A stretch of DNA of 64,000 bases from Mobula birostris (Eukaryota). Position 1 is the first letter of the stretch. Every line of letters begins with the position of its first letter. The stretch is from positions 37,663,770 to 37,727,769 of the forward strand of contig NC_092373.1 of NCBI RefSeq assembly GCF_030028105.1, in the 5' to 3' direction. The position numbers and the translations under genes were made by a program. This document shows positions 58,785 to 64,000 of the stretch, piece after piece. The notes beneath the pieces were generated by a model. The model was not told the origin of the DNA and searched no databases. It worked only from the letters and a program-made list of their open reading frames with translations.

Positions 58785-58800
58785 ATGATTACCTCGGCCG
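58785..58800 (+). CDS. PSMD1: PSMD1 (Rpn2) first coding exon, MITSA(A); later exons not seen in the window
   Basis: caacATGATTACCTCGGCCG|GTGAGT in a CpG island. MITSA is the recalled PSMD1 N-terminus, and the gene is syntenic with C2orf72. Confidence 0.88.
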
Positions 58801-63440: not shown

Positions 63441-63627
63441 TTAGAAAGTATACTGGAGTTAAATGAATATGGCAGATATTAATTCAAACAAGAATCAGGC
63501 TTCAGTTCTTATTGTAAATGTAAGTAAGTTCAGGAAGCTTACAAATAGCTTTGTTTTTTATGTAAATTGCAGCAGTAAATTGAAGTTAAAAGCACAATCT
63601 GCTCCACAGACTGAGATTGCATATGCA

Positions 63628-63697
63628 AGTCAGTCAGTGGGTGCCATCCCGAATCTGGGGTTGGCGGCTATGCACCTCCATCTTCTTCGATCTTGCG
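63628..63697 (-). mobile_element. Extreme 3' tip of an RTE-like LINE
   Basis: Encodes QDRRRWRCIAANPRFGMAP, like the xQDR..WR..V C-terminus of RTE ORFs, and ends in an (ACTG)n short-repeat tail. Confidence 0.55.
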
Positions 63698-63859
63698 ACA
63701 GCACCGAGTACAGCCTCTCCTCCAGTTTGTTCTCGCTGGCCGCCTTGGCACCGCCCGCCGAACTCGAGCCCAAGGCTGTGTCGGCCTCCAGCTGTGGCCG
63801 CTTCTTCGAGCTCGGCCCTTCCTTAGGCGGAGGCCTTGGGCAGGTCCAGGCACACGGTG
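63698..63859 (-). pseudogene. ZFTRAF1: Circularly permuted fragment of CYHR1/ZFTRAF1 coding sequence
   Basis: The minus strand reads [10 protein letters not shown] (63858-63829) followed by PKEGPSSKKRPQLEA...[12 protein letters not shown] (to 63699). The recalled native order is [25 protein letters not shown]. Confidence 0.8.
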
Positions 63860-64000
63860 AGTGCCCAAGTTCACCATTGTCTCTTCTAACTAGGTGCATA
63901 GCGTACGATTTATAGATAAGTGGTGAGGCTTTAATCTCTTCCATGGAAGATGGCAGTTGGCTCACAAGGAGCTCATCTGCCCTTTGTCAAGTCTTGTTTT

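Follow-up and report, generated by a model that had tools for sequence, protein, structure and literature searches.

Bipartite non-autonomous RTE elements and RTE-derived SINEs, such as Bov-A, RTESINE1/2, and WALLSI3 (Kojima 2018, PMC5786205), are the closest described relatives of the element that we report here from Mobula birostris. As characterized in the part of that article devoted to them, they join the 5′ part of a LINE to its extreme 3′ end, finish in a microsatellite tail, encode no reverse transcriptase (RT), and share the genome with a partner LINE, all of which applies to our element as well. Unlike them, it carries a permuted fragment of a host coding exon between the LINE parts, and its head consists of the LINE 5′ end folded back on itself; whereas bipartite RTE elements in the strict sense are built solely of LINE 5′ and 3′ parts, ours also contains 178 nt of host exon and an inverted duplicate head. 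The element works like a bipartite non-autonomous RTE element but is a variant. A two-part RTE body preceded by a GC-rich head is also known from the AviRTE SINEs BuceSINE and ManaSINE2 (Suh et al. 2016, PMC4844689). In our case, the head derives from the 5′ end of the LINE itself through an inverted duplication and A-to-G changes, and the passages of that paper on these SINEs mention no host exon.

Three further systems resemble the host part of the element. Host exon sequence in reversed order, without a poly(A) of its own, is typical of circRNA-derived pseudogenes (Dong et al. 2016, PMC4897178), for which the main text describes whole exons joined by back-splice junctions and reports at most 33 high-confidence copies, and for which reverse transcription across open, structured RNAs is named as an alternative. 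Here, in contrast, the junction lies inside a first exon and not exactly at splice sites, exactly one turn is present, and the product is a mobile family of hundreds. In LINE-1/mRNA chimeras (10.1101/2025.02.02.635956), as in our element, a cellular RNA has been joined in sense orientation to the 3′ end of a LINE, through ligation or template switching, but in the sections of the preprint that describe them they are separate colinear insertions, and neither “circular” nor “permut” occurs in its main text. Finally, microDNAs are described in the relevant sections of PMC9527254 as circles of 100 to 400 bp enriched in 5′UTRs, exons, and CpG islands; the size range and the origin in a CpG-rich first exon agree with our host piece, but microDNAs are free circles in cells, whereas the element is a germline-fixed, amplified linear permutation. 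Within the literature searched, we found no description of this family or of SINE heads fixed after editing by ADAR, and an entry may exist in repeat databases, which like subscription journals lay outside the search; CYHR1 combined with retrotransposon returned only unrelated work and ZFTRAF1 combined with transposable element returned nothing.

A retroposon family with one copy in PSMD1 intron 1

The window is a 64,000-nt stretch of the M. birostris genome (GCF_030028105.1, NC_092373.1, positions 37,663,770 to 37,727,769), in which the original prediction had placed a host exon fragment fused to an RTE-like 3′ tip at 63628 to 63860. That interval belongs to a non-autonomous retroposon of ∼570 nt, and the stretch at 63629 to 64000 is, with near certainty, one copy of a family of such retroposons (Table 1). 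The predicted extent was too short, the unit running ∼320 nt further in the 5′ direction and past the window end. In the family unit, a fold-back head is followed by LINE 5′UTR, by pieces B and A of ZFTRAF1 (CYHR1) exon 1, and by the LINE 3′ end with its (ACTG)n tail. The minus-strand order read from the window, namely piece B, then piece A, then an RTE-like tail with ACTG repeats, was correct, and the tail is LINE-like as proposed; the host piece, however, sits between LINE 5′UTR and LINE 3′ tip and not merely on the tip.

Table 1 Parts of the element and neighboring features (window positions unless a contig is named)
Feature	Position	Strand	Remarks
Likely 5-nt target-site duplication, 3′-side copy	63626-63630	-	5′-side copy past the window end, at G000:C5:37727955-37727959; 5 nt alone could be chance
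Last ∼70 nt of an autonomous RTE-like LINE with (ACTG)n tail	63629-63697	-	Majority sequences of element and LINE identical over 63 nt; 197 matches to the tail pattern without host piece
ZFTRAF1 exon-1 piece A	63698-63823	-	126 nt here, 138 nt in the family majority; 12-nt deletion in a GGC run; natively the upstream half
ZFTRAF1 exon-1 piece B	63824-63862	-	39 nt here, 40 nt in the family majority; natively the downstream half; ends 4 nt before the exon-1 splice donor
3′ part of LINE 5′UTR and first codons	63863-64000	-	7-nt and 10-nt deletions relative to the LINE majority
Rest of element, past the window end	G000:C5:37727829-37727949 (head in the window copy)	-	∼59 nt more of 5′UTR, then the 128-nt fold-back head
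PSMD1 exon 1, coding part	58785-58800	+	Context only; the element lies antisense in the following intron

A pattern spanning the B|A junction gave at least 404 exact matches across many contigs of the genome and none for the reversed control. Because it recovers 34 of 48 copies that were selected in other ways, we estimate ∼570 copies, probably too low a figure. When the stretch itself was used as the query, 1856 first-look candidates were obtained; the best 40, which were scored, all span nearly the whole unit, and the 39 matches other than the stretch itself do so at 89 to 94% identity. Searching with the 5′ end revealed a fixed start, and 27 of 29 fetched loci continue through the host piece to the tail (one of the others stops inside piece A and one before piece B). 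Among 30 loci picked by pattern, 29 end in the tail and the 5′ starts are variable, six of them no more than 5 nt from the full 5′ end and another 11 between positions 25 and 35, in the left arm of the hairpin described below. Direct repeats of 6 to 12 nt were found in 54 of 76 copies with an intact 3′ end and of 5 nt in 10, with none in the remaining 12, in a count made without a chance control and with one locus counted twice. Many copies, flanking repeats, and 5′ truncations, the marks of a unit that moves, are all present.

Thirty-two full-length copies diverge from their column majority by 3.1% outside CpG and by 19% at CpG sites. With 2.5% and 21.5%, respectively, the window copy is typical of the family; 31 of its 58 CpGs are intact and six are gapped, so that the argument from intact CpGs to a recent insertion fails. 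A single recent private insertion is ruled out by the number of junction matches, by the copies of nearly the whole unit, and by this family-average divergence. Contigs from four other runs, which carry different organism labels (A, B, D, and G), cover the insert, and among the pieces listed, contigs of run X10 bridge all three junctions and those of runs X2 and X13 the A|tail junction. These contigs support the family, not the PSMD1 locus.

Two copies, L044 and L049, are alike in their changes at the beginning of piece B and in having a G instead of an A at the B|A junction; the G is present in four of the 100 junction matches listed, and the shared changes suggest a minor subfamily. Many full-length copies (for example, L053, L061, and L067) start with CTTCCGG or a close variant, which we take to resemble an ETS-type Pol II start motif, the transcription route being putative.

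Two halves of ZFTRAF1 exon 1 in swapped order

A search with piece A returned 26 candidates, including three ZFTRAF1/CYHR1 proteins of cartilaginous fish, and in these A precedes B. Native ZFTRAF1 exon 1 lies on the minus strand at G000:C4:228441936-228442262, with piece A directly upstream of piece B; it is colinear and intact in the assembly, and the matches to A and B are the only two in the 150 kb around it. The proposed swap relative to the native gene is thereby borne out in the same genome. Of the two adjacent, swapped matches in CYHR1 exon 1 with microhomology at the junction that had been anticipated, adjacency and swap were found and microhomology was not. The reading frame of piece B encodes 10 residues of the host protein and that of piece A KEGPSSKK...ERLYSVL.

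In the column majority of the 32 full-length copies, A and B together make up 178 nt (71% G+C, 20 CpGs) that tile the native exon with three substitutions, and every nucleotide at the opening point is present exactly once. The ∼4 nt thought to be missing there stem from a miscount and from damage in the window copy, in which a 1-nt deletion unique to it and a CpG change fall at this point. With hundreds of copies, the founder junctions can be resolved at the level of single bases, a precision that a lone circRNA pseudogene does not offer. In a plain reading, all three joins are blunt and without clear microhomology; the TCC-G microhomology suggested for the internal junction is not visible in any of them.

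A second reading exists. With B ending just short of the splice donor and A starting with AG, a 180-nt circle closed by joining the donor to an internal AG, followed by a later loss of 2 nt, would give the same junction. A pattern search of the genome for copies that keep the 2 nt predicted by such a donor junction returned a single match, which is a 1-nt insertion. The would-be acceptor lies inside a first exon, in a purine-rich context without a pyrimidine tract. The ends of the circle share no direct repeat in the 178-nt reading and one of 3 nt in the 180-nt reading.

An assembly chimera or an internal duplication of the native gene has a negligible chance of explaining these data, being excluded by the junction matches in the hundreds, by the colinear exon without a duplicate in 150 kb, and by the bridging contigs of other runs. 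No processed ZFTRAF1 pseudogene was found either; only the two native exons were matched in the genome.

The partner LINE

Of the loci matched by a tail pattern that excludes the host piece, 30 were fetched, and 29 proved to be 3′ ends of one LINE family. Two long copies of this ∼3.2-kb LINE were found, both broken by stops and frameshifts, and the one scanned (L136) gave domain matches to PF03372 (APE endonuclease) and then PF00078 (RT). The LINE is putatively assigned to the RTE clade on its architecture (one long reading with APE endonuclease followed by RT, a length of ∼3.2 kb, and a microsatellite tail), not on a tree, and partly on C-terminal motifs that we take to be RTE-like.

The 5′ part of the element is 86.8% identical to the two long LINE copies over 212 columns, and it differs by four substitutions in 190 aligned positions from the majority of 24 of 30 LINE 5′ ends. 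The element is a two-part derivative of this LINE, with a ∼2.9-kb interior replaced by the host piece. LINE copies diverge by 2.8% outside CpG and by 20% at CpG sites (25 of 30 loci, five being left out for truncation or indels) compared with 3.1% and 19% for the element, and because these values match, the two were likely active together. Two LINE copies, L153 and L154, share the 7-nt deletion that the element has in its 5′UTR, and L153 also has the element's T near the junction, which points to a sub-lineage close to L153 as the likely parent.

The thirtieth locus (L119:1505-1580; G000:C3:207898998) is a bare LINE tail that starts at the exact first base of the element's tail, with no host piece and no evident flanking repeat. 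This single case among 30 loci may point to a site at which the LINE RNA breaks preferentially. The search for other host pieces on the LINE tail, proposed in the original prediction, came back empty for the 30 loci fetched from the 197 tail matches, 100 of which were listed, and for one extra locus, the latter being a family copy with a deletion.

A fold-back head enriched in A-to-G changes

Positions 1 to 128 of the family majority fold into a hairpin of ∼55 bp with a folding energy of -104.5 kcal/mol, compared with -70.1 ± 4.1 kcal/mol for 200 mononucleotide shuffles. The LINE 5′ end with a 98-nt deletion makes up the right arm and loop, and the left arm is an inverted copy of the already deleted LINE sequence. 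None of 30 LINE 5′ ends has the left arm, so the fold-back is not native to the LINE. A tRNA, rRNA, or ribozyme origin of the head was rejected: two Rfam matches in the element lie far below the gathering score, and five LINE 5′ loci lend no support. The head is accounted for by LINE sequence and not by a Pol III-transcribed small RNA, as a SINE in the strict sense would require.

The head shows 19 differences from the LINE, of which 15 are sense-strand A-to-G changes, and these occur in both arms. Fifteen of 23 parental As are now G in the head, as opposed to none of 55 in the rest of the 5′UTR (Fisher p = 1e-10, with sites that are not independent). Opposite the changed bases, the left arm still has Ts, complementary to the original As, and A is therefore the ancestral state. 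A-to-I hyper-editing of double-stranded RNA followed by reverse transcription leaves A-to-G changes of this kind, and the pattern suggests that ADAR likely hyper-edited the head and that reverse transcription fixed the changes ahead of the family's expansion. ADAR avoids a 5′ G neighbor, but the expected avoidance is only weak here (five of 15 edited As have a 5′ G compared with six of eight unedited As). A pattern search of the genome for a head that is still unedited gave one match, the left arm of a family copy read on the other strand.

The head provides an internally controlled case of RNA-editing-type changes turned into genomic sequence, and it suggests that unexplained GC-rich SINE heads are worth re-testing as edited fold-backs. 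If the edited fold-back reading is true, it offers a general, testable origin for the GC-rich heads of RTE-driven elements.

How the founder may have arisen

Most likely, either a small circle made from a host coding exon or a copy equivalent to one turn around it entered the germline and was amplified within a mobile element. The family was likely spread by the LINE's proteins and founded by a single joining event, and we lean with modest confidence toward capture at the RNA level, because the host piece is in sense orientation to the LINE, is wholly exonic, and ends at the exon boundary, and because the joins are blunt and the adjacency is exact. In such a founder, the LINE RT would have copied ∼70 nt of its own tail and jumped without homology to ZFTRAF1 exon-1 RNA. 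Exactly one turn would then have been copied, either from a circular template opened by one nick or by a jump to the 3′ end of the exon and a stop at its own start, before a further jump onto LINE 5′UTR RNA. Ligation of the three RNA fragments before copying would give the same product; RNA ligation is reportedly a route that joins a cellular RNA, U6, to LINE-1, and the resulting U6/LINE-1 chimeras are said to carry the cellular RNA in sense on the LINE 3′ end. Separately, the 5′ end would have folded into the hairpin, been hyper-edited by ADAR, and been fixed by reverse transcription before expansion.

The lack of any loss at the opening point and the blunt joins fit homology-free template jumping or RNA ligation, and the position of the B end so close to the donor fits a donor-to-AG junction with a later loss of 2 nt. 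Template jumping without homology was demonstrated for the R2 enzyme in PMC8857657, whose relevant section also doubts that it has a physiological role; here, it would have to be ascribed by analogy to an RTE-like enzyme. Against an RNA-level event stand the nature of the would-be acceptor, the failure of any copy to keep the 2 nt of a donor junction, and the lack of a surviving intermediate: apart from the unedited head, an insert-less parent joining 5′UTR to tail with a gap of up to 30 nt had no exact match in the genome, a search that could miss a diverged or single-copy parent.

The length of 178 to 180 nt, the high G+C content, and the CpG count of the host piece would suit a DNA microcircle equally well. 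Under this rather unlikely alternative, a microcircle of 178 to 180 bp from the CpG-island exon of ZFTRAF1 was cut once and patched a double-strand break that deleted the LINE interior, and the product then spread as a retroposon. Size, composition, and exonic 5′ location agree with microDNA as portrayed in the sections of PMC9527254 cited above. The 3-nt repeat at the ends in the 180-nt reading can be added, and no splice acceptor is required. End joining usually trims or adds bases, however, and both circle ends are intact to the base, which the microcircle explains less well than RNA-level joining does. A simultaneous deletion of ∼2.9 kb would also be needed, the sense orientation and the end 4 nt from the donor would be coincidences, and the native exon is intact in the assembly.

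Replication-type template switching can give multi-piece templated insertions, and a break-induced event with several switches could have copied two neighboring exon segments, their order swapped, into a broken LINE, with neither a circle nor RNA. The other rearrangements of the element, that is, the 98-nt deletion and the inverted duplication, would be in keeping with this route. We nevertheless consider it improbable, as the base-exact adjacency of A and B has no explanation under it, and the microhomology that it usually leaves is absent.

Returning to RNA-level capture, the permuted geometry first proposed holds and is tighter than was thought, with exact adjacency, and the two mechanisms put forward with it, a circular template copied once around and a switch of the LINE RT from its own RNA to CYHR1 mRNA, remain the leading ones for the founder; the PSMD1 locus is not the capture site. 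The more specific combination, in which a circular host-exon RNA copied once around by an RTE RT became the body of the family and ADAR hyper-editing of a fold-back wrote its GC-rich head, is one that we put forward only tentatively. If the circular-RNA reading is true, the family preserves, as a fossil in the germline, a capture of circular RNA that was then amplified hundreds of times.

The copy at the PSMD1 locus and related LINE sequences

The location in PSMD1 intron 1 was predicted correctly, with exon 2 near C5:37740681, exon 3 near 37741440, and further RPN2_N exons behind; exons 2 and 3 were placed with peptide motifs that we take to be those of PSMD1. The locus is an ordinary later retrotransposed copy, and the setting is incidental to the capture. 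As one copy among hundreds, it is uninformative on the capture in its recency, its host gene, and its own junction details. The antisense intronic copy is probably neutral in PSMD1. One contig of run X1 matches the 3′ flank junction of this copy without differences, but with fewer than 31 letters inside the element. At L001:1537-1557 and 2126-2150, contigs of all four other runs join both flanks and skip 575 to 602 nt, and the window copy therefore likely interrupted an older repeat.

As had been proposed for the host fragment, piece A shares its frame with the last codons of the LINE. In the family majority, a 93-aa frame (window 63630 to 63986, minus strand) runs from the LINE ATG through piece A, including the basic KKRPR stretch of the gene, to the LINE stop. 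It is open in 36 of 73 copies, a raw count without a neutral control that is evidence neither for nor against selection.

The genome also harbors several other RTE-like families, which have DUF6451 and different microsatellite tails (L072 to L101; 2301 candidates), and the ends of the element are not shared by the DUF6451-bearing families among 30 loci fetched of 150 matches. Similar LINE matches are clustered at regular spacing at G000:C11:57.28-58.20 Mb and C38:14.8-17.3 Mb, and these clusters are likely large tandem or segmental duplications.
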